Source of the DNA: an uncultured Clostridia bacterium
GTDB lineage: Bacteria > Bacillota > Clostridia > Christensenellales > DTU072
DNA: 64,000 nucleotides
Reading direction: 5' to 3'
NCBI GenBank assembly: GCA_944362765.1
Contig: CALVTP010000006.1
Coordinates: 3,508 to 67,507 of the forward strand
Part shown: positions 2,673 through 53,813 of the stretch, one piece after another
How the letters are laid out: each line of letters opens with the position of its first letter
How positions within the stretch are numbered: the first letter of the stretch is position 1
The notes under the pieces: model-generated
Database searches by the model: none
Told to the model about the DNA's origin: nothing
Seen by the model: the letters and a program-made list of their open reading frames with translations, nothing else
Program-made: the position numbers and the translations under genes

Positions 2673-4508
2673 ATGCGCACAAAAAAGCTGTTGCCGATAA
2701 TTGCTCTTTGCATCGTGGCTGCCGTCATGGCGCTGACTGCCTGCGTTCGGGACGAAGAATCCGAAACGGGGAAATTTGTCGTCGAAAAGGCAGAAGTGTC
2801 CATCCCCGCCGGGCTGAATGACGGCGCTTTGAAAATAGAGTGGCTGACCGACTTCGAAATCAATAAGCCGACGGTGGTTTATTTTCACGGCGTCGGAGAC
2901 TATAACGACATAACCGACCTCGTTTTGGACGAACACATTTACACCACCGATACGGGGAACGACGGAGTCGTCTATACCTCGGGTGAAACGGTTGACAGGA
3001 TAGAAGAGAGTCGTGAACTCAGCCATCACTGGGACGAAAACGATTTTAATCTCGGCGTATTCCATTACGAAAATTTTGCCGATGACACCGCCGATAACGT
3101 CGCTGCGAAGGTATACTCTTCGGCTCGGATGAGCTATATTCCCGCCGCGGGCGGAACGACGGTGACGGGAGGACTTTACTTCAACCTTACCGAAGCTTTT
3201 ATCGCCGAATGGCTGAAAACCGACGCCGATGCTCTGAATACGGCGGGCAGCAAGAGGATGATGGAGATAAGGTTTATAGGCGTCGGAGTGGGCGCCAATC
3301 TTGCCGTTTCCGCAGCCGATTATCTGAATGCTTTGTACGAACAGGGCACGATAGATTCGATGTATCTGCCTAACCGTATCGATATGATAAATCCGTACCT
3401 TGCGCACAACGGCTCCACCCCCGTCGTCGATTACAGGGTGACTACGAACATCCCGTCGCAATTGGAGTATTCCGCCGAGGCGATTTCAAGGCTTGCCGAT
3501 ACCGGAGTGGTGTTCGACTTTGTCGAAAGCCGCCCCGATTTTTATACTTATAACGGCGAAAACTACGACGGAGTCTTTGCCGAGTCGACAAGCGGCGAGG
3601 ACGGGGAAGAGATCAAACTGACCTTCTACGAAGAGGGCGCCTCCGCCTTTTACAGAAGCATTCTTTCAAACGTCGCTTATTTAAGTTTAAGGGAGTCGGT
3701 CACCAAAAACAACGAGACATATCTCAGCGCTTTCGGCGACTCCGAAGAGGGCAGGGCGCGTGCCCGCGACAGGTTCGCTTCCGATTGGTATATGTTCTCG
3801 ATAACCGGTTCGGACGTCACCGGCATCTCCGCCCAGACGGCCATTCCTTACGGCGATTCCGACAACAGACGCCCCGTTCTGGACGGCTACAACCGCGACG
3901 GTGTGACGGCGAGTTCGGCAGTAAAATACGGCGTTTCGGCGTGGACTCCGACGACCTACCTGAGAGCGATAAAGGGTGTGGAGTTCGTGCAAAGAAGCTA
4001 CAACACCTCCGACAAAACCGAAAAAGCGGTGACTTTGGATAAATTCAGAATCGAAAATTACCAGGTTTCGGCAAGTAACTTCCTGGGAACGGACAAATTG
4101 GCGGGCGTTCAGAAGGTGGCGGGCTATGTCTACCTCACCGAAGATTCCGGTAACTACTATGTCGAAATGAAACGCGATAAGCGCCTTCAGGGAATAGAAA
4201 TAATAGCCGAATTCACCTCCGACGACGACTCCTTCACGAGGAAAACGACGACCGATAAAACGGGCTATTACGAAATCGACATCGGAATGCAATATATCGA
4301 TTATCAGGTAAAAATCACCGTCAACTTCCCGGGAAACCGCTACAAAAAGCTGACCGCTACGGCGGGAGCGTCGGGTTCGAATTATACAAGACTGACTTTC
4401 AACGGGATAACTTCGGCAGACGGCAGCGTTACTTCGATATATCTGAACAATACCGAGGGCGCCAAATTCTTTATCGGCATCTATAACGGCGGACTGCTAC
4501 CGCTTTAA
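2673..4508 (+). CDS. Lipoprotein with a lipase-like alpha/beta-hydrolase region lacking the catalytic Ser, plus a C-terminal CarboxypepD_reg-like beta-sandwich
   Basis: Lipobox LTAC after a hydrophobic signal peptide. VVYFHGVGDYND and IRFIGVGVGANLA resemble the lipase oxyanion and nucleophile-elbow blocks, but GxSxG is GVGVG. TDKTGYYEIDIG lies near the C-terminus. Confidence 0.7.
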   Translation: MRTKKLLPIIALCIVAAVMALTACVRDEESETGKFVVEKAEVSIPAGLNDGALKIEWLTDFEINKPTVVYFHGVGDYNDITDLVLDEHIYTTDTGNDGVVYTSGETVDRIEESRELSHHWDENDFNLGVFHYENFADDTADNVAAKVYSSARMSYIPAAGGTTVTGGLYFNLTEAFIAEWLKTDADALNTAGSKRMMEIRFIGVGVGANLAVSAADYLNALYEQGTIDSMYLPNRIDMINPYLAHNGSTPVVDYRVTTNIPSQLEYSAEAISRLADTGVVFDFVESRPDFYTYNGENYDGVFAESTSGEDGEEIKLTFYEEGASAFYRSILSNVAYLSLRESVTKNNETYLSAFGDSEEGRARARDRFASDWYMFSITGSDVTGISAQTAIPYGDSDNRRPVLDGYNRDGVTASSAVKYGVSAWTPTTYLRAIKGVEFVQRSYNTSDKTEKAVTLDKFRIENYQVSASNFLGTDKLAGVQKVAGYVYLTEDSGNYYVEMKRDKRLQGIEIIAEFTSDDDSFTRKTTTDKTGYYEIDIGMQYIDYQVKITVNFPGNRYKKLTATAGASGSNYTRLTFNGITSADGSVTSIYLNNTEGAKFFIGIYNGGLLPL

Positions 4509-5591: not shown

Positions 5592-7598
5592 ATGCCGAAG
5601 AAAAACGAAGTCAAAGCTTCGGGTTACAATGCCGACGACATCCATGTATTGGAAGGATTGGAACCCGTCAGAAAACGCCCGGGAATGTACATCGGGACGA
5701 CGGGACCGAAGGGGCTGCATCACCTGATCTGGGAAATAGTCGACAATGCCGTCGACGAAGTGATGAACGGTTTTGCCGACACCGTCGAAGTGGTTTTATA
5801 CGACGACGGCTCGGTCTCCGTCAAGGACAACGGAAGAGGTATTCCGGTGGACGTAAACAAAACGCAGAACATGACGGGAGTCGACCTTGTGTTCACAAAG
5901 CTCCACGCGGGCGGCAAGTTTGACAACGGCGGATATCAGTTCAGCGGCGGTCTTCACGGCGTCGGTGCTTCGGTGGTCAATGCCCTTTCGGAATGGCTCG
6001 AAGTGGAGGTTTACCACGATAAAAAGGTTTATTACGAGCGCTTTGAAAGGGTATTTGACGCCGACGGCACAGTGCACAGCGGGCAGACCGTAGTGCCGTT
6101 GAAGGTGAACGGAAAGACCTCGGCAAGGGGAACTTTTGTGCGTTTCAAACCCGATAAGGACGTCTTCGAGACGGTGGAGTTTGACGCGCGCACCATCCGT
6201 ACCCGCGTAAAAGAACTGGCGTTTTTGAACAAAGGAGCCGCTTTCATATTCGAAGACAGGCGCGCTCCCGATCCGGAGACGGGGGAATACAAGCGCTTCG
6301 AATACCGCTACAAAGGGGGGCTTCAGGACTTTGTCCAAAGTCTCAACGCCGACAAGGAAAAGCGCTCCGACAAGGTGATTTACATCGAAGCGGGCGCAAG
6401 TAACGGGCTTCAGATACAGATAGCCATTCAATACACGACGACTTTTGTCGAAAATATAATCTCTTACGTCAACAACATCCCGACGACGGAAGGGGGCACT
6501 CACGAGACGGGCTTCAAGCTGGCGTTCACCAAGGCGATGAACGAATACATCAAGCGCAACAAGCTGATGAAGGACAAGGACAAGGATTTGCAGCTTGTGG
6601 GCGAGGACTACCGCGAAGGCATGACCGCCGTCATCAACCTGAAATTGAAGGAAGTGCAGTTCGAGGGACAGACCAAGACCAAGCTCGGAAACCCGGAGGT
6701 GAAAGGCATAGTCGACTCCATCGTCTACGAGAAGCTGACCGCCTACTTTTCGGAGCCAAAAAATAAAGATATCGCCCTGTTAATAGCAAAACTTGCCATC
6801 AACGCGGGCAAAATCCGTCAGGAAGAAAAAAAGATAAAGGACGCCCTCAGAAGCTCCAAAAACAGCATGACGGGAAAGACGGCTATCGGAAAGCTGTCGA
6901 ACTGTTCGGGGCGCGATTATTCGAGAAACGAACTGTTCATAGTCGAAGGCGATTCCGCAGGCGGCTCGGCGAAGAAGGGACGCGACCGCACCTTCCAGGC
7001 GGTACTGGCGCTGAGAGGAAAACCGTTGAATACCGAAAAGTCGAAGAAGACGGATATGCTGCAAAACGCCGAGATAAATACGATAATTTACGCTCTCGGC
7101 ACAGACTTCGACAAGGACTTCAATATCAAAAACCTCAAATTCGATAAGATAATAATTCTGGCGGACGCCGACCACGACGGCGAGCATATCCGCTGTCTTC
7201 TGCTGACATTCTTTTATAGATATATGCGCCCGCTGGTCACCGAAGGGCATGTTTATCTCGGGATGCCGCCTCTTTACAGGGTGACGCAGAAGGGGGTGAC
7301 GCGCTACGCGTATAACGACCTCGAGCTCGACAAAATCCTTCATGAGACCAAAGGGCAATACAATCTCCAGCGTTACAAGGGGCTTGGCGAGATGAACGAC
7401 GACCAGCTTTGGGAGACGACGCTGAACCCGAAGACGAGAACGCTTACCAGAGTCACCGTCGAGGACGCCGCCGAAGCCGACGAGATGATCTCCCTTCTTA
7501 TGGGCAACAACGCCGACAGAAGGAAGGAATTCATCAACGAAAACGCCAATTTCAACAAGGTTGACGCCTTCCAATCGAAACTCGGAGGACAGAAATGA
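5592..7598 (+). CDS. parE: Type IIA topoisomerase subunit B (topoisomerase IV ParE favoured over GyrB)
   Basis: GHKL block [16 protein letters not shown] and Toprim [10 protein letters not shown]. Start moved to ATG 5592, which has a GGAGGA RBS; the ORF-track start 5502 adds a non-homologous leader. The ParE call depends on the partner subunit. Confidence 0.9.
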
Positions 7599-10096
7599 GA
7601 AAGGAAAAGATAAAGCAATTAAGTCTCGATCTGGAGAGCACCGTCACCGAAAAACCGATAGAAGCCATCATGCCGGAATCGATGATGATCTATTCCGAGC
7701 ACGTAATTCTGGATCGCGCACTGCCGAGAGTGGAGGACGGATTGAAACCCGTTCAGCGCAGGATACTTTATACGATGTATAACCTGAATATGAAGCCGAA
7801 GGGCGGCTTCAAAAAGTCGGCGCGCATCGTCGGCGACTGCATGGGTAAGTACCACCCCCACGGCGACTCCTCCATTTACGACGCCATGGTCAGGCTGACG
7901 CAGGATTTCAATATGCGGATGCCGCTGATAAAAGGGCAGGGGAACTTCGGAACTCTGACCGACCCGCCCGCCGCAATGAGGTACACCGAGGTGGAGATGG
8001 GCGCGCTCGGAATGGAGCTTCTTCGCGACATCGACAAGGACACCGTCAGGTGGAATAAAAACTTCGACGACACGTTGGACGAACCGGATCTTCTCCCGGG
8101 CAGGTTCCCGAATCTTTTGGTCAACGGCGCGCAGGGAATAGCGATAGGGCTTGCGACGAACATCCCTACGCATAACCTTACCGAAGTCATCGACGGTTGT
8201 ATCGCCACTCTTGAAAATCCGAGAATTTCGCTGGAAGAGCTGATGACCTTCATCAAAGGACCGGATTTCCCGTCCGGCGGCTTTCTGGTGGGCGGGAAGG
8301 AGCTTACGGAAGCCTACCGCACCGGGAAAGGAAGGATAGTCATCTCGGGAAGAGCCGATATCGAAGGGGACGGCGACAAGCAAAGCATAGTCATTACGGA
8401 ACTGCCGTACGGCGTCAACCCGAACAGCCTGATAGACAAAATTTACTCCCTCCGCGAAAAGAAAAAAGAGCTCTTCGGAAACATCACCGAAATTTCAGAC
8501 GAGACGACGAGGGGTATCCGTATAGTCATCAAATTGAAAAAGGGAGAGGACGCGTCAAAGCTTCTGGATGCCCTGTACAAACATACCGAACTGCAGTCGG
8601 CATTCAACTTAAACATGGTGGCGATAGCCGACGGCAAACCGCGGCTTATGGGTATCCAAAAGGTGTTGGAGTATTACCTGAACTACCAAAAACAGATAGT
8701 CCGCAACAGAAGTATCCACGAGCTCGGAGTCGCAAAAAAACGCGCCGAGGTGTTGGAAGGATATCTGACAGTCATACCCGATATCGACGAGGTGATAGCG
8801 CTTATACGCTCCTCTCAAAACCGCGGCGAAGCCAAAGTGAGGCTGCGCGAAAGGTACGCTTTAAGCGAGATTCAGGCGGAGGCGATTCTGAGTTTGCAGC
8901 TCGGAAACATCAATAAACTCGACGTAGGGAAGTACACCGAGGAATTGAAGGGGCTGAAAAAGGATATCGAGCGGCTGACGAAAATAAAGGACTCCGTCCG
9001 CGAACAGACCGCCGTCGTCAAACAGGAACTCATCGAGATCCGCGACCGTTACAAAAACGAAGCAAATTCGAGAAGGCTTACCAAAATAATCGGCGACATA
9101 AAGGACATCGAGACCAAACCTTTCGACCCCACCAAGAGGACAGCCAAGCGCATGATAGCCGCTTTGACCGCCGACGGCGGTGTCAAGTTCATGACGGGGA
9201 GAAGTTATCTCGGCGCCAACCGCGAAGCGGGCGCGGGGGACATCAACTCCGTGCATACCGTAGTCGAAGAAATCCCGGCGGGACATATGGTGCTGATATT
9301 CGGAAGCCTCGGGAATTGTTATAAATTCGACCCCTCCGCCATCCGCGACAGACAGTGGACGGAAAAGGGCGAGGCGCTTTCGGACATCGTGCCGGACGCT
9401 CCCTCAAACGAAAAGGCTGTGGCGGCGCTTCCGTTCGACCCCGAGGCGGTGCCTGCGTCGGAAGTCTACATCTATACCGCGCTCGGCATGGTAAAGCGGA
9501 GCGCATTCTCCGCCCTTGTGGTCGGTAAAATCTTCTATCAGGCGATGACGTTAAAGGAGGGGGACGAAGTCATCGGCGCCGAAGTGGTTGTACCGGGCTC
9601 GACGATATTGTTTGTCAGCTCCGACGGTCAGTGCGTCAACTCGCTTACCGACGACTATCCCGAACAGGGCAGGATCGCCGGCGGCGTCATAGGCATGAAC
9701 TTAAACCGCGACCAACGCGTCGTTTACGCGGGGCAAGCCGACGTCGAGATTGTGACGGGAGAAGAAGGAGACATTCCGATGCCGCTCGGAGAAATTCTTG
9801 TCGTCACCGAAAAGGGGACGGGGAAACGGGTCATCGCTTCCGAATTCCCGCCGATGAAGAGGAACAGAAAAGGGTTGAGAATAATAGATATCTACGGCGA
9901 AAACATCTCCGTTATTTTTGCAGGTAAGGTGCTGGAGCCGTATAAAGTCGTAATCGAGGACAAGGAAGGGGAACTTCATGTCGTCGATACCGAGGAAATC
10001 AGGATCGAAAGGAAGGACACCAAAGGAAAACCCATTGTCCGAGGCATTCGCCCGAAGCGCATCTTCAAAGCCAGGGAGGAGTACGAAAATGGCTAA
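7595..10096 (+). CDS. parC: Type IIA topoisomerase subunit A (topoisomerase IV ParC favoured over GyrA)
   Basis: KPVQRRILY (GyrA usually has KPVHRRIL), YHPHGDSS and AAMRYTE (catalytic Tyr). I could not find a GyrA-box (QRRGGKG-like) in the C-terminal domain. ATGA overlap with parE. Confidence 0.9.
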
Positions 10097-24592: not shown

Positions 24593-25243
24593 ATGAAAAA
24601 AACTTTGGTTTCACCCTCGATACTCTCCGCCGACTTTGTCAACATGGAGCGCGACGTAAAAAAACTTGCCGAATGGGGAGCCGACTACGTCCATTGCGAC
24701 GTCATGGACGGAGTTTACGTCAAGAACATCACTTTCGGCATGCCGATGATAGCGGCGATCAAAAAAATTTCACCCCTTCCGTTGGACGTCCATCTGATGA
24801 TCACCGAGCCCGAGCGCTACGTAGAAGCCTTCGCGGACGCCGGAGCCGATATCATTACATTCCACCCCGACGCCTCCCGCGACCCGTCAAAAACCCTCGA
24901 CCTTATCAAAGGGAAGGGCGTCAAGTGCGGCATAGTCATCAATCCCGATGTTCGGCTCGACGACTATATCGGGCTGCTCCGAAAGTGCGACGTGCTGCTC
25001 GTGATGAGCGTTTATGCGGGGCTCGGCGGTCAAAAATTCATACCGGAAACTCTTGAAACCGTCAAAAAAGGCAGGGAATATATCGACGCCAACAGCCTTT
25101 CCGTGATAGTGGAAATCGATGGCGGAGTAGGCGCATCGAATGCCGCGCTTTGCAAGGAGGCAGGAGTTGATATGATAGTGGCGGGCTCCGCCGTATACAA
25201 AGCCGACGACCCCGAAGAAGTCATCCGCATTCTGAGGTCCTGA
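24593..25243 (+). CDS. rpe: Ribulose-phosphate 3-epimerase
   Basis: PSILSADF..., HCDVMDG and HLM blocks. 216 aa. Confidence 0.94.
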   Translation: MKKTLVSPSILSADFVNMERDVKKLAEWGADYVHCDVMDGVYVKNITFGMPMIAAIKKISPLPLDVHLMITEPERYVEAFADAGADIITFHPDASRDPSKTLDLIKGKGVKCGIVINPDVRLDDYIGLLRKCDVLLVMSVYAGLGGQKFIPETLETVKKGREYIDANSLSVIVEIDGGVGASNAALCKEAGVDMIVAGSAVYKADDPEEVIRILRS

Positions 25244-25271
25244 CCGTTTTCCCGTTAATTCCGACTTTCTG

Positions 25272-25350
25272 CAAATGAAGAAAAGTCCGCACGGGCAGCG
25301 AACTTTTCCATAAGGTTTTGTCTTCGCGAGCAATAAAAGTTCTCTGATTT
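25272..25350 (-). ncRNA. Diverged copy (M0) of the repeated RNA module; its hairpin probably also terminates rpe
   Basis: Aligns to the module core (..ATTGCTCGCGAAGACAAAACCTTATGGAAAAG on the minus strand). Its hairpin AAAAGTTCGC/GCGGACTTTT (25281-25307) has a different sequence from the other copies but still pairs. No clear promoter of its own. Confidence 0.3.
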
Positions 25351-25474
25351 TATTCTTAGACATACAATCAAGGGAGCCCTTGTGGGAAACTTGTTTCTTT
25401 CGCCCGAAAGCGCCGTGAAATATGCCCCTAGACGCGGATAAATAATTTTCTTCCCGCATCAATCCCTCCTTATG

Positions 25475-25578
25475 AAAAAAGCCTGTACGTGCGTACAAGC
25501 TTTTCCATAAGGTTTAATTTTCGCGAGCAATTAAAGTACTCTTACTTTATTTTTGCGGGAAGGGCTACAACCGACCAA
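25475..25578 (-). ncRNA. Candidate sRNA module M1 (about 100 nt)
   Basis: The promoter-like boxes at 25585-25613 predict a start near 25578. Contents: C-rich GCCCUUCCCGC, hairpin UUAAUU-GCUCGCGAA-AAUUAA (25514-25534), and a terminator hairpin (within 25468-25512) followed by U6 (25475-25480). Confidence 0.4.
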
Positions 25579-25584
25579 ACTCTC

Positions 25585-25613
25585 ACTGTACGATGAAGCC
25601 GTCGAGATGTAGA
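25585..25613 (-). promoter_or_regulatory. Promoter-like element of M1
   Basis: On the minus strand, TCTACA (25613-25608)-17 nt-TACAGT (25590-25585). Both hexamers and the spacing are conserved in copy 2 although the spacer sequence differs. Confidence 0.4.
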
Positions 25614-25771
25614 TTACCGTGTAAAGAACGAGATACGGAGCGGATTGAGGCGAAAAAAGAGATGTAGTTGGTTTAAATGCACATACCGGTGAAGCCTGCT
25701 TTACCGTTTATTATAGCAAATTTAATATACTCATAGTACCCGGCTATATTTCAATAATACCGCTTCGAAGA

Positions 25772-25868
25772 AATTTCTATCGCCCTAGAAATTATCTTTT
25801 GTGGCGGAGTATAGAAATATCGTTCGCGGCATACGTCGTATGCCGCTCTCTCATTTCGTCACTCCGCC
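25772..25868. other. Two strong hairpins/palindromes in the unique spacer
   Basis: AATTTCTA-TCGCCC-TAGAAATT (25772-25793). Also a nested 66-nt palindrome at 25803-25868: GGCGGAGT/ACTCCGCC outside, GAAAT/ATTTC in the middle, GCGGCATACG-T-CGTATGCCGC at the centre. Confidence 0.6.
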
Positions 25869-26033
25869 GCAAAATCTATCTTTCTAAGACGATATCTCTT
25901 CCTTCTCTTCGGTATTATAAGAGTTGGCTCCAAAACGGACAGTCGCTTCGCTCCTGTCCTGTCCGAAAGCGCCGTGAAATATGCCCCAATACGCGGATAA
26001 ATAATTTTCTTCGCGCATCAATCCCTCCTTATG

Positions 26034-26136
26034 AAAAAAGCCTGTACGTGCGTACAAGCTTTTCCATAAGGTTTAATTTTCGCGAGCAATTAAAGTTCCC
26101 TTACTTTATTTTTGCGGGAAGGGCTACAACCGATAC
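26034..26136 (-). ncRNA. Candidate sRNA module M2 (about 100 nt)
   Basis: Same architecture as M1. Terminator hairpin lies within 26027-26071 with U6 at 26034-26039. Promoter-like boxes at 26143-26171. Confidence 0.4.
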
Positions 26137-26142
26137 TCCCTT

Positions 26143-26171
26143 ACTATAAAATAACGCTGTCTAGATGTAGA
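26143..26171 (-). promoter_or_regulatory. Promoter-like element of M2
   Basis: On the minus strand, TCTACA (26171-26166)-17 nt-TATAGT (26148-26143). Confidence 0.4.
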
Positions 26172-26430
26172 CGAGCGTGTAAAGTACGGGATACGGAGCG
26201 GATTGGGGCGAAGGTGAAAATGGAAAGCTGTTTGGGCAAATAGAAGCTAGGAGCACCGGTGTCGGGGGTGATTTTTCGCGAAGCGTCGAAGGGAGTGTAC
26301 ATGGGGGTACATGACCGAAGACGCCCAAAGGGTGTAGACCTTTAAATCCTATACACTTCGCGGAAAGGCACCCCCGAGAGCGCCCCTAGACGCGGGTATA
26401 ATTTTCTTCCCGCATCAATAGCTCCTTATG

Positions 26431-26522
26431 AAAAAAGCCTGTACGTGCGTACAAGCTTTTCCATAAGGTTTAATTTTCGCGAGCAATTAAAGTATTCTTA
26501 CTTTATTCTTGCGGGAAGAAAA
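26431..26522 (-). ncRNA. rpmB 3' UTR carrying module copy M3 and the rpmB intrinsic terminator
   Basis: Directly after the rpmB stop: CUUCCCGCAAGAAUAAAGUAAG, the UUAAUU...AAUUAA hairpin, then the AAAAGCUUGUAC-GCAC-GUACAGGCUUUU hairpin plus U6 (ending at 26431). Confidence 0.6.
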
Positions 26523-26711
26523 TTATTTGGATTTTTTCATGGTGCGTAAGCATCTGGTGCATACATAGCCTTTTACGGGGTTGCCGTTGGCGTCGACGGT
26601 GTCGACCTTCTGGACGTTCGGCGTCCACGACCTTCTCGTTTTGATATGGCTATGACTTATAGTATTTCCGGACATTGTGCCTTTTCCGCATATTACACAT
26701 ACTTTAGACAT
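26523..26711 (-). CDS. rpmB: 50S ribosomal protein L28
   Basis: 62 aa: MSKVCVICGKGTMSGNTISHSHIKTRRSWTPNVQ... GGGAGG RBS. Confidence 0.95.
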   Translation of the reverse strand: MSKVCVICGKGTMSGNTISHSHIKTRRSWTPNVQKVDTVDANGNPVKGYVCTRCLRTMKKSK

Positions 26712-26745: not shown

Positions 26746-26774
26746 ATTATATATGATGCGGCGGAGTTTGTCAA
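26746..26774 (-). promoter_or_regulatory. Consensus sigma-A promoter of rpmB
   Basis: On the minus strand, TTGACA (26774-26769)-17 nt-TATAAT (26751-26746), about 35 nt upstream of the start codon. Confidence 0.8.
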
Positions 26775-51191: not shown

Positions 51192-53813
51192 ATGAACATG
51201 GAGAAAAATTTCGAGCCGCAAAGTTTCGAAACCTCTATCTATGCAGAGTGGGAGAAGAACGGTTATTTCACTCCCGAAGTCGACTATTCGAAACCTCCGT
51301 TTTCGATAGTCATTCCGCCGCCGAACATCACGGGGCAGCTCCACATGGGACATGCGCTGAACAACACCATTCAGGACATCATCGTCAGGCACAAGCGTAT
51401 GCAGGGCTATTCGACGCTGTGGCTTCCCGGTACCGATCACGCGAGCATAGCGACGGAAGTAAAGATCGTCGACAAACTCCGTGAAGAGGGGCTTGAAAAG
51501 GAAGATATCGGAAGAGAGGAGTTTTTAAAGCGCGCTTACGAGTGGAAAGCCGCTTACGGCGGCAGGATAGTTCAGCAGCTTCGCCGCCTCGGTTGTTCCC
51601 TCGATTGGTCCAGAGAGGCGTTTACGATGGACGAGCGCTGCTCGAAAGCCGTAAGGGAAGTCTTCGTCAACCTTTACAGAAAGGGACTCATCTACCGCGG
51701 GAGCCGCATAATTAACTGGTGCCCGCATTGCCGGACGGCGCTTTCCGACGCCGAGGTGGAATATGAGCCGCAAAAGTCCAATCTTTGGCATATCCGTTAC
51801 CCGTACGCGGACGGTTCGGGTTACATGGTCATTGCGACGACGAGACCGGAAACCCTTCTCGGCGACACCGCAGTCGCCGTCAACCCGAAGGACTCCCGCT
51901 ACGCCGACAAGATAGGCAAGATGCTGAAACTGCCTTTGACCGACAGGGAAATTCCCGTCATTGCGGACGACTATGTCGAACTCGACTTCGGAACGGGCTG
52001 CGTAAAAATAACTCCCGCGCACGACCCAAACGACTTCGAAGTCGGTTTAAGACACAACCTTCCCGTCATCAGGATAATGGACGACTCCGGCGTCATCAAC
52101 GAAAACGGTTACGCTTATAAGGGGCTCGACCGCGACGAGGCGAGGAAGAGAATAGTTTCGGACCTCGGTGAGCAGGGGTTGATGGAAAAGATAGAACCTT
52201 ACGAGCACAATGTCGGAGTCTGCTATCGCTGCCACAGCACCGTAGAACCCATCGTTTCCAAACAGTGGTTCGTCAGGATGGAGCCGCTTGCCAAACCTGC
52301 CATCAAAGTGGTCAGGAACAAAAAGATCAGCTTCATTCCCGAACGCTTCGAAAAGATCTACTTCAATTGGATGGAGAATATCCGCGATTGGTGCGTCTCC
52401 CGCCAGCTTTGGTGGGGACATCAGATTCCTGCATGGTATTGCGAGGAATGCGGAGAGGTTATAGTCGAAAAACACGACCCCGAAAAGTGCCCGAAGTGCG
52501 GTTCCGTCAGACTGAAAAGAGATGAAGACGTGCTGGACACCTGGTTTTCCTCGGCGCTATGGCCCTTCTCGACGCTTGGCTACCCCGACGAAACGGAAGA
52601 TCTCAAATATTTCTACCCCACAAATCTTTTGGTCACCGCCTACGACATCATTTTCTTCTGGGTGGCGAGAATGATTTTCTCGGGACTCGAGCACATGGGA
52701 GAAATCCCTTTCCCGGAGGTGCTGATCCACGGCATAGTCCGCGACGCCGAAGGTCGCAAAATGTCTAAGTCCTTAGGAAACGGCATAGATCCCATTATGC
52801 TTATCGACAAATACGGCGCCGACGCATTGAGGTTCAGTCTGACAACGGGCGTCGCTCCCGGTTCCGACATCCGTTTCAGCGAAGATAAGATGGAACCCAG
52901 CAGGAACTTCTTAAATAAACTCTGGAATGCTTCCCGCTATGTGTTGATGAACGCCGATGGCATAAATTTACCCGAATTCGGTAGCTTTAATTACAGTTCT
53001 GCCGATAAATGGATACTCTATAAATTGAACCGCACGGTAAAAGAAGTTAACGCTTATCTTAAAAAATACGAACTCGGAATGGCTAACGCAAAGCTTTACG
53101 ATTTTATTTGGAGCGACTTTTGCGATTGGTATATAGAGCTGACCAAGCCCGCGCTTTACGGCGAATCGGTAAACGAGAAGGCAAGGACGCTGTCGGTACT
53201 TATGTATGTGCTGAAACAGATCCTGAAACTCATACATCCCTTTACTCCGTTCATCACCGAAAGGATATGGAAGGAGTGCGGCGACGTCGGCGCGATAATG
53301 CTCGAAACCTATCCTTCTTACAGCAAAAAGTTCCTCTTCACGGCGGAATTCAGACGCTTCGAAAAGGTCAAGGACGTCATTCGTTCCCTTAGAAACGTGC
53401 GTGCCGAGATGGGCGTTCAACCCTCCAAAAAGATAGGCGTTTCGGTGTGCGGCGAAGCCGAAAGTTATATAAGAAGGAACGAAGTCTATCTTAAAAAGCT
53501 CGCCGGCGTCGAGACGATTTCCTATGTGAAGTCGAAAGCCGACGTGAGCGGGAAAATCGTTTCCATAGCCATGGCGGACGGCGAAATTTTCATACCGCTC
53601 GGAGACCTTGTGGATTTCAAAAAGGAGTCCGAAAGGCTGGAAAAGGAATTGAGGTCTGTCGAAAACGAAATCCGCCGCGGCGAGGGTATGCTGTCGAACG
53701 CGGGATTTGTCGCGAAAGCGCCCGAAGCTTTGGTGGAGCAGGAACGCAGAAAGCTCGAAGAAAACAAGCTGAAACGCGAAAAACTTGTCAAACGCATTGA
53801 GGACTTGAAGTAG
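51192..53813 (+). CDS. valS: Valine-tRNA ligase
   Basis: [13 protein letters not shown] (HIGH), KMSKS, C-terminal coiled coil. 873 aa. Confidence 0.95.

Follow-up and report, generated by a model that had tools for sequence, protein, structure and literature searches.

What occupies the 1,279 bp between rpe and rpmB? In a 64-kb stretch of DNA (hereafter the window) from an uncultured gut Clostridia lineage, these convergent genes are separated by a gap that holds short open reading frames (ORFs) only, and in it a module of about 150 nt occurs four times, always on the rpmB strand. A first-pass annotation had taken the gap for a multicopy family of small RNAs (sRNAs). Here, we favour a different explanation, to which we would assign a probability of about 0.6: the gap is a hypervariable array of species-restricted, interspersed and mosaic palindromic intergenic repeats, built around a bidirectional intrinsic terminator. 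We read the modules as repeat elements because they are dispersed in both orientations, exist as truncated, arms-only and terminator-less variants, abut stop codons and in one case are fused to an ORF, are gained and lost between strains, are restricted to one species plus one other metagenome-assembled genome and coincide with contig breaks.

A gene-free gap with four modules

The left edge of the gap is the rpe coding sequence (ribulose-phosphate 3-epimerase; 24593-25243, plus strand), a 216-aa ORF whose identical protein in contig L083 matches PF00834; L-numbers here denote the contigs or loci retrieved for comparison, largely from metagenome assemblies. The right edge is rpmB (ribosomal protein L28; 26523-26711, minus strand), a 62-aa ORF with PF00830 on an identical protein. 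The six longest ORFs in between gave no match in a Pfam search, in keeping with the gene-free gap first described. In Bacillus subtilis this slot between rpe and rpmB presumably holds thiN, which has no bearing on our conclusion.

A repeat search returned direct copies of 171 nt at 25404-25574, 25963-26133 (97%, five differences) and 26360-26530 (77% ungapped), which are copies 1, 2 and 3 below, and a fourth copy of 55 nt at 25303-25357 (85%). Copies 1 and 2 have a common extension of 73 nt (25582-25654 and 26140-26212, 81%). Moreover, a 32-mer from the repeat core occurs three times in the window against zero expected. A covariance model gave the same four same-strand copies, so that their coordinates, their identities and the five differences between copies 1 and 2 all stand as first annotated. 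Outside the gap the model found no module on the rpmB strand in 64 kb, and the repeat search and nhmmer likewise returned nothing elsewhere. Nor was a named RNA family recovered, as had been surmised: Rfam gave zero families at gathering score for the entire window, and for the gap the best matches were MicC at 22.5 bits (gathering score 90) and AsxR at 20.8 bits (gathering score 63), both with E > 4.

Read on the rpmB strand, a full module runs from a 5′ arm (..AAUUUUCUUCCCGCA) through a small hairpin, a box and a long hairpin to a 3′ arm (UGCGGGAAGAAAAUU). The basic unit measures about 125-150 bp and is enclosed by an outer inverted repeat of 9-33 bp (...AATTTTCTTCCCGCA / TGCGGGAAGAAAATT...). 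The small hairpin is of the A/U type, UAAAG(UA)-loop-(UA)CUUUA, and is followed by the near-invariant box AUUGCUCGC / UUGCUCGC. The long hairpin, of about 20 bp, reads CCUUAUGG-AAAAGC-UUGUAC-GCAC-GUACAG-GCUUUU-UUCAUAAGG and includes an A-tract and the U6 tract. The C-rich stretch CUUCCCGC, which had been thought exposed and suited to pairing with Shine-Dalgarno (SD) sequences, is the inner part of the outer inverted repeat; its partner GCGGGAAG lies directly past the terminator hairpin, and the two arms change together. A second hairpin proposed at the outset, UUAAUU/GCUCGCGAA/AAUUAA, is absent from the minimum free energy and centroid folds of the unit of about 105 nt and is lost in the diverged L089 and L181/L186 types. 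The co-varying hairpin is the UAAAG..CUUUA stem just upstream of that site.

As first annotated, folding predicts for every copy a long hairpin that leads into U6. In copies 1-3 it has an 8-bp GC-containing stem (four G-C pairs) together with A/U pairs. A GC hairpin with a U-tract lies directly after the stop codon of rpmB and after that of a 453-aa gene at another locus (see below), and an intrinsic terminator is predicted at both. A simple terminator scan did not flag the module hairpins; we infer that pairing between the A-tract and the U-tract lengthens the stem and uses up the T run.

The rpmB-proximal module, copy 3 (26384-26531, minus strand; covariance model score 177.6 bits), is of the inverted-repeat type. 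Its arms (26398-26420 and 26504-26526, inverted repeat I5) are 23 nt long and 91% complementary, and the outer one contains the rpmB stop codon (26523-26525). The arm-to-arm unit of 136 nt folds at -53.5 kcal/mol (z = -9.4) on the rpmB strand and at -47.6 kcal/mol (z = -7.5) on the other. Judged from this arrangement, copy 3 is very probably the rpmB terminator and 3′ untranslated region (UTR), as had been suggested. Copies 1 and 2 are of the promoter-segment type, which retains only 9-bp arms. Copy 1 (25426-25575, minus strand; 166.9 bits) was also recovered as direct repeat D1, as inverted repeat I8 and by folding; its arms lie at 25450-25458 and 25554-25562, the small hairpin P2 at 25532-25549 and the terminator hairpin P3 at 25468-25512, and the 'down' block follows. 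Copy 2 with its 'down' block spans 25963-26134 on the minus strand (157.5 bits at 25985-26134; D1, 97%), and one of the five positions at which it differs from copy 1, a G to C change, breaks the inverted repeat.

Copy 4 (25226-25372, minus strand; 75.4 bits; 55-nt repeat at 85%) is diverged and 5′-truncated. It lacks the C-rich arm altogether, leaving a gap in the alignment, and the earlier statement that every copy has the same order does not hold for it. The copy 4 hairpin (25281-25307) abuts the rpe stop codon and can serve both strands; the stem differs in sequence and still pairs, with one C-A mismatch and a weaker U4 tract. In strains L088 and L090, copy 4 still has both the C-rich arm and a promoter-like segment.

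The array differs between strains and is missing from related species

Among contigs encoding exactly the Rpe or L28 protein of the window, the flanks are 96-99% identical and the gap ranges from 315 to 1,279 bp, with two to four modules. In the shortest version (L084/L085, 315 nt) copy 4 is accompanied by one module that is a hybrid of copies 1 and 3; the gap is 487 nt in L090, 1,058 nt with three modules in L088, and 1,279 nt with four in the window. The window version is tiled exactly by L083 and L093 together, both from one sample. Most other contigs of the same species end within the repeat.

For comparison with other species, 80 rpe loci were taken from GTDB representative genomes. Searches of these with nhmmer and with covariance model R1 found no module (best E-value 0.86). 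The nearest of them, L002 (Rpe 88% and DNA 74-81% identical), has a 150-nt rpe-rpmB gap with one plain terminator, and in L003 the gap of about 300 nt is without modules. A scan of the GTDB representatives with an exact 30-mer and a degenerate 26-mer matched only L001, a locus in another metagenome-assembled genome (MAG), and L082 (Thiogranum), a chance match. The JGI metagenomes and IMG/VR gave 0 matches each, and a second JGI scan with the arm pattern returned only L200, an unrelated GC-rich fold-back. In the data searched, the module family thus appears to be restricted to one species plus one other MAG. The L200 match (3100-3650, GC about 54%) is a large palindrome that happens to contain TTTTCTTCCCGCAATGG and its complement, and it may be an assembly fold-back artefact.

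Modules occur at other loci in both orientations

Modules were found at no fewer than four loci: between rpe and rpmB, upstream of the str operon, at the 3′ end of the 453-aa gene and at the 3′ end of a rimI-like gene. The str-operon contigs were retrieved through the L7Ae-like protein P0001 and the further loci through a spurious ORF that crosses the module. The str-operon and rpmB contigs share the same five samples of origin, and the former are therefore inferred to belong to the same species.

Nearly all contigs carrying L7Ae-rpsL-rpsG-fusA-tuf stop 0.2-2 kb upstream of the operon, within the same repeats. In L186, four modules lie between the upstream gene and L7Ae, on the strand opposite to both; in L180, two modules lie on the str-operon strand. 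Directly upstream of the operon (region 1840-2020), L186 has a module whose 33-nt terminal inverted repeat contains one mismatch (1840-1993) and the right arm of which ends in TTGAC, the -35 element of a TTGACG-17-TATAAT promoter before L7Ae-rpsL. An alternative allele at that site (L089, L183, L184) consists of just the two arms around a 13-nt loop. In L089/L178, rpmB (3001-3189) is joined through a module array to L7Ae (3963)-rpsL-rpsG-fusA-tuf and not to rpe; this junction may have arisen by an inversion in that strain, through recombination between the arrays of two loci, or the assembly may be chimeric at the repeat.

At the 453-aa gene, the TAA stop codon lies directly at the 5′ arm of the module (TAATTTTCTTCCCGC), an arrangement seen in six contigs from different samples. 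The orthologue in another species (L197, 63% identical) ends ATGTAA and is followed by a plain terminator. The rimI-like acetyltransferase ORF of L190 reaches the repeat without a stop codon and extends for 14 codons within the module arm (694-735; …PARIYWYYFLPARLK*); the repeat has thus replaced the native C-terminus and stop codon. The order that follows, namely module, 'down', spacer B, 'prom', module, 'down' and spacer A, is the order behind rpmB in the window, at about 87-95% identity. Hence the module follows the stop codon at both rpmB and the 453-aa gene, oriented with U6 after the hairpin, and the rimI-like ORF enters a module of the same orientation. Degenerate forms are also present: an arms-only mini-module (L089 3830-3880), half-modules (L186 401-460) and copies without a U-tract (L186 modules b and d).

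The other MAG carries a single unit, 88% identical over 257 nt, on a 406-kb contig (L001) beside an IS200-type tnpA. This MAG was not returned by a query with the ValS-like protein or Rpe, and in the same sample the window species is present at 2.2x against 13x for the L001 contig; the two are probably different organisms. The tnpA (7088-7612, minus strand) is flanked by GC hairpins (region 6980-7690) and lies about 85 nt from the end of the mosaic homology. The insertion sequence uses these hairpin ends and not the module arms, and it may be an ordinary neighbour of the mosaic or an insertion into or next to it. No connection with movement of the modules emerged. We rejected the module as part of this IS200, the module being downstream of the tnpA 3′ end and the mosaic homology stopping about 85 nt from tnpA. 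A tblastn search of the window with the L001 tnpA found no homologue (best E = 0.24), other transposase families not being searched.

The first-pass annotation had the family seeded from the rpmB 3′ UTR. This we cannot uphold, as the same module with its flanking segments is present at the str operon (in both orientations), the 453-aa gene, the rimI-like ORF and L001.

Both sides of the stems change together

Covariance model R1 retrieved 35 same-strand copies, 34 of them distinct, in an alignment that is fitted to the model and whose rows are paralogues and alleles rather than independent lineages. Across the 34, 88% of cells form standard pairs. Seventeen of the 43 pairs change on both sides, against 7.9 +/- 1.8 in shuffled alignments (0/500 reach 17) and 6-10 with slid partners. 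For example, the arms of L089 have CUUUGCCCA/UGGGCAAAG in place of CUUCCCGCA/UGCGGGAAG, which amounts to three compensated pairs. The outer arms vary by locus in both length and sequence and stay complementary: TATAATTTTCTTCCCGCAA (19 bp), ATTGGTATTATTTTCTTCCCGCAA (24 bp) and GTCAAGCAAAAATAAATAATTTnCTTCCCGTA (33 bp), with arm lengths of 19-24 nt at L186a, L189 and L190.

In the upper stem of the long hairpin, read on the rpmB-sense strand, G-U cells outnumber A-C cells 70 to 11, and we therefore read the excess as an RNA-level constraint on the hairpin as a terminator. Together with the copy 4 stem, which differs and still pairs, this agrees with the earlier view that structure rather than sequence is preserved in the hairpin. 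The arms have no such bias (G-U 15, A-C 32); the constraint on them is thus strand-neutral and could act on DNA or RNA. At the outset, scatter in both orientations without compensatory changes, in the manner of a miniature inverted-repeat transposable element (MITE) or a repetitive extragenic palindromic (REP) sequence, had been set against the sRNA family. Scatter essentially of this kind was found, but compensatory changes exist too.

Other repeated segments travel with the modules

The modules are accompanied by further repeated non-coding segments, here called 'down', 'prom' and the hairpin-rich spacers A, B and C. All those of the window lie on the minus strand. The 'prom' of copy 1 (25576-25660) contains a -10-like TACAGT (25585-25590), a -35-like TCTACA (25608-25613) and repeat D3, with CCTCAATCCGCTCCGTATC as its best-conserved block. 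That of copy 2 (26135-26212) contains TCTACA-17-TATAGT, found by a promoter scan at 26171-26143 with 9/12 matches; the TCTACA-17-TACAGT pair of copy 1 is weaker. The promoter-like boxes claimed for copies 1 and 2 are thus present, but their conservation is partial. In an alignment of 16 'prom' copies, a -35-like TC(T/A)ACA is kept at constant spacing, and the -10 occurs as TATAGT, TACAGT, TACAAT, TATTGT, TATGGT, TATAGC, TACAGC or TACAGA, with the final T in 11/16. The best-conserved block of the alignment, CCCCAATCCGCTCCGTATC / GCCCCAATCCGC (window 25640-25654), lies upstream of the -35. By hand comparison it is 9-11/12 complementary, G-U counted, to the 'down' block GCGnnTTGGGGC (window 25418-25432), and L091_mid pairs poorly. 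The complementary 'prom' and 'down' blocks alternate along the arrays; significance in a single unit is marginal (rough p about 0.1), and the pairing recurs across copies. About half of the modules have no 'prom' segment. A promoter is possible, yet from its distribution would not be a defining feature of the module family.

Spacer A (25661-25962) is non-coding and has an inverted repeat (I1) with 38-nt arms (25754-25791 and 25881-25918) around a GC hairpin. At about 300 nt it recurs in L180, L181, L186 and L190 at 91-96%, that is, at the str-operon and rimI loci, and is a repeat in its own right. Inside the imperfect inverted repeat at 25754-25918 (arms 71%) lie GTGGCGGAGT...ACTCCGCCGC and, at 25826-25846, a GC hairpin whose tail is T-rich on the plus strand. 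Spacer C (25373-25425), between copies 4 and 1, has the hairpin CAAGGGCTCCCTTG, and the same segment follows the module at L189, the 453-aa gene (95.6% over 45 nt).

Spacer B, together with the 'down' of copy 3, occupies 26213-26383 and forms a long imperfect hairpin from an inverted repeat (I2) with 30-nt arms (26257-26286 and 26353-26382). The fold reaches -58.9 kcal/mol (z = -5.0), with z about -5 on either strand, and further copies are present in L186 and L190. In strain L191 (about 230-360), GTTGCGGGTG/CACCCGCAAG stands where the window has GTCGGGGGTG/CACCCCCGAG, which amounts to two compensated pairs at 97% identity between the strains. Paired changes this rapid suggest that one arm is corrected from the other, or that paralogues replace the whole unit, rather than that compensatory evolution proceeds slowly. 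Within spacer B, L089 (3410-3690) and L094 (3398-3538) have a hairpin-rich insert of about 280 nt (GGCGGAGCG...CGCTCCGCC; CGAACAAAAACAAAAC...GTTTTGTTTTTGTTCG), which is inverted at the str locus (L186, about 760-960). This is probably another repeat family nested in the mosaic.

Likeness to known repeats and RNAs

In behaviour, the closest match to the modules is the SPRITE element, an interspersed repeat with a long hairpin and a U-rich tract that lies within 200 bp of 3′ ends and is most strongly enriched where genes converge (PMC3049150). No target-site duplication has been established for it, co-option as terminators has been proposed, and there are about 30 copies per genome (PMC3049150). 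Both families are interspersed, non-coding and species-restricted, share a core of hairpin plus U-rich tract, lie near 3′ ends or convergent genes and are clustered or nested; no relationship in sequence would be expected. In contrast, the terminal repeats of SPRITE are AAAA/TTTT only, whereas those described here are arms of 9-33 bp that enclose a second hairpin and an invariant box. Against the copy number of SPRITE, only four to five loci are known here, from incomplete genomes. A likeness to BOX elements, which have a modular A-Bn-C structure (PMC3049150), lies in the mosaic that module, 'down' and spacers form at varying copy number.

The modules have terminal inverted repeats, a small non-coding unit (125-150 bp) and multiple dispersed copies, the last on metagenome contigs with two loci assigned by shared samples, as expected of a MITE. 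MITEs that carry promoters or act as terminators have been reviewed (PMC10969869). Like the Correia elements among them, the modules are intergenic elements of 100-200 bp with long terminal inverted repeats and strain differences, and a long arm duplex in co-transcribed RNA would be a potential RNase III substrate (PMC10969869). A further likeness is that an element end can supply a promoter element, here the TTGAC of the str-operon -35 at the end of a 33-nt arm. Correia elements are set apart from the modules by their TA duplications, by copy numbers above 100 and by mobility and inversion that have been demonstrated. The modules, for their part, have co-repeated sequence outside the arms and form same-strand tandem arrays.

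REP sequences and bacterial interspersed mosaic elements (BIMEs) are strain-variable mosaics of palindromic units and linkers in extragenic 3′ regions, with roles in termination and in stabilising mRNA 3′ ends. The array resembles them in its mosaic, strain-variable and 3′-extragenic arrangement and in these possible roles, and the alternating complementary blocks (CCCCAATCCGC in 'prom', GCGnnTTGGGG in 'down') recall alternating REP orientations. REP units are 20-40 nt long, occur in hundreds of copies and are associated with RAYT transposases (REP-associated tyrosine transposases). Here, the unit is about 150 nt, one locus is present in 64 kb and no RAYT was seen; the only neighbouring Y1 transposase, that of L001, looks like an ordinary IS200 TnpA without modules on both sides.

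The LhrC sRNAs of Listeria are multicopy, tandem and about 100 nt long, with a C-rich motif complementary to the SD sequence. The gap likewise has several tandem units of about 100 nt with promoter-like boxes, a terminator and a C-rich motif. The modules differ in that many copies are promoterless, some are truncated, inverted or fused to an ORF, and the C-rich motif is a co-varying arm of an inverted repeat; furthermore, conservation does not extend beyond one species and one other MAG, and they are known from sequence alone.

We also rejected an integron attC array (CALIN), in which each imperfect palindrome would have R'' RYYYAAC ... R' GTTRRRY core sites at its ends. By inspection, the arm ends are GTCAAGC...GCTTGAC or TAATTTT...AAAATTA, which have no GTT/AAC cores and run with a polarity opposite to that of attC.

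Two observations concern the surroundings. A perfect sigma-70 consensus, TTGACA-17-TATAAT (12/12), lies upstream of rpmB on the minus strand (26746-26774), in the divergent region common with an Asp23-like gene. The Rfam search, which was without a gathering-level match, included the region upstream of a probable valyl-tRNA synthetase gene (51192-53813); a T-box leader is common upstream of that gene in Firmicutes.

Repeat array or sRNA cluster?

The case for sRNAs deserves most attention. According to this explanation, the primary function of the family is that of trans-acting RNAs of the LhrC kind, with transcripts of about 105 nt running from TC(T/A)ACA-17-TAnnnT to U6 and a C-rich 5′ stretch that pairs with SD regions. 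The promoter-like hexamers keep constant spacing in 16 copies with a conserved -35, the hairpin and U6 lie on the same strand with the G-U excess, and in L001 a promoter, core and terminator stand alone as one unit with unrelated surroundings. Moreover, the C-rich arm would be unpaired in terminated transcripts, because its partner arm lies beyond the terminator. However, half of the copies have no promoter segment (the rpmB-proximal, 453-aa-gene and rimI-proximal copies and L186 a/c/d), the critical last T of the -10 is lost in 5/16 and the best-conserved 'prom' block is upstream of the -35. Conservation also extends at least 45 nt beyond the terminator. The C-rich stretch co-varies with its partner in cis, and it is thus the pairing inside the element that is maintained. 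Some copies are truncated, inverted or fused to an ORF, and the nearest species lack the family, which leaves no seed conserved across species. Lacking specific support, an sRNA family as the primary function appears doubtful to us.

The sequence after the terminator invites another explanation, in which each unit is a cis-regulatory leader or attenuator with a promoter, a conditional terminator and a short ORF (MREEN...) that has its own SD (AAGGAGG) and AUG, and in which pairing of the C-rich arm with the start region controls translation. Copies 1-3 do have AAGGAG(G)-N5/6-AUG after the terminator, with the AUG within the 3′ arm of the inverted repeat. Nevertheless, the ORF has 8, 9, 44 or more codons and its frame differs between copies, the AUG or SD is lost in many of them (TTAATTGCGGG, GATAGATACGGG, GGGATTGGGCGGG, GGTAAG), and the arm change in L089 turns the peptide MREEN into MGKEK. 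There is no downstream gene in the window, where the units run into rpe antisense. We hold a leader to be very improbable, and rejected the mini-ORF itself since its length and frame vary in every copy and its start codon or SD is often lost. It is equally hard to credit that no wider family exists and that the gap reflects either an artefact of assembly or tandem duplication confined to the rpmB terminator region. All four window copies lie in one gap with none elsewhere in 64 kb, and repeats are prone to collapse or expansion in assembly. Yet the array recurs, at different sizes, in independent assemblies made by several projects, the window version is tiled by L083 and L093, unique gene-module junctions at other loci recur in several samples, and the L001 unit lies inside a 406-kb contig.

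Under the repeat-array reading that we favour, copy 3 would terminate and probably stabilise the rpmB mRNA, and copy 4 would serve rpe as a terminator from the other strand. Copies 1 and 2 with spacers A and B would be redundant passengers that homologous recombination, inside one array or between two, adds and removes, and the family would have reached new sites by some transposition or recombination step, as MITEs do. Any sRNAs from promoter-bearing units would be by-products and not the reason for the family's existence.

Several points count against this. No target-site duplication was found and no empty site within the species: at the 453-aa gene, 4/4 further contigs carry the module and end in it. 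Empty sites were seen in other species only (L002, L197), whose divergence is too great for the boundaries to be placed. The TA on either side of the arms belongs to the palindrome, so that transposition is not demonstrated, and we know of no transposase with matching ends. Since 'down' and the spacers are co-repeated outside the arms, what moves or duplicates is not just the module within its inverted repeat. The remaining 62.7 kb of the window hold no other copy, a much lower density than that of classical REP or Correia elements. Assignment of the 453-aa and rimI loci to the species relies on shared samples and repeat identity, not on physical linkage, and metagenome contigs can be chimeric at repeats. 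Lastly, the strand asymmetry and the promoter-like boxes are equally expected of an sRNA gene.

An extension of the repeat array, which on balance we consider unlikely, would make the modules portable 3′-end cassettes that home to stop codons, each providing a ready-made bidirectional terminator for the upstream gene, an outward promoter element (by way of the outer arm or 'prom') for whatever is downstream and, from promoter-bearing units, C-rich RNAs of about 105 nt. The str-operon -35 supplied by a module arm would be one example. If this were true, the repeat family would actively rewire transcription-unit boundaries, and an sRNA family would have its origin in it, within an uncultured lineage of gut Clostridia.

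Conclusions

As we read it, the element is a bacterial repeat of a familiar type, found in a lineage from which no such repeat had been reported. To the small set of SPRITE-like terminator-bearing repeats it contributes a member from the Clostridia with unusually long co-varying arms. For annotation, the lesson is that tandem units of promoter, structured core and terminator resemble an sRNA cluster and can nonetheless be interspersed repeats; the deciding comparison is with strains and other loci, not folding. The family breaks assemblies beside core genes (rpmB, the str operon, rimI-tsaB-tsaE) and may explain regions that are often missing from bins. In a Christensenellales-like gut lineage known from MAGs only, the array is a hypervariable marker for strain typing. 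Moreover, the junctions described here include three cases in which the element is inserted at or within the extreme 3′ end of a coding sequence, and one in which the end of the element forms part of the promoter of a ribosomal-protein operon.

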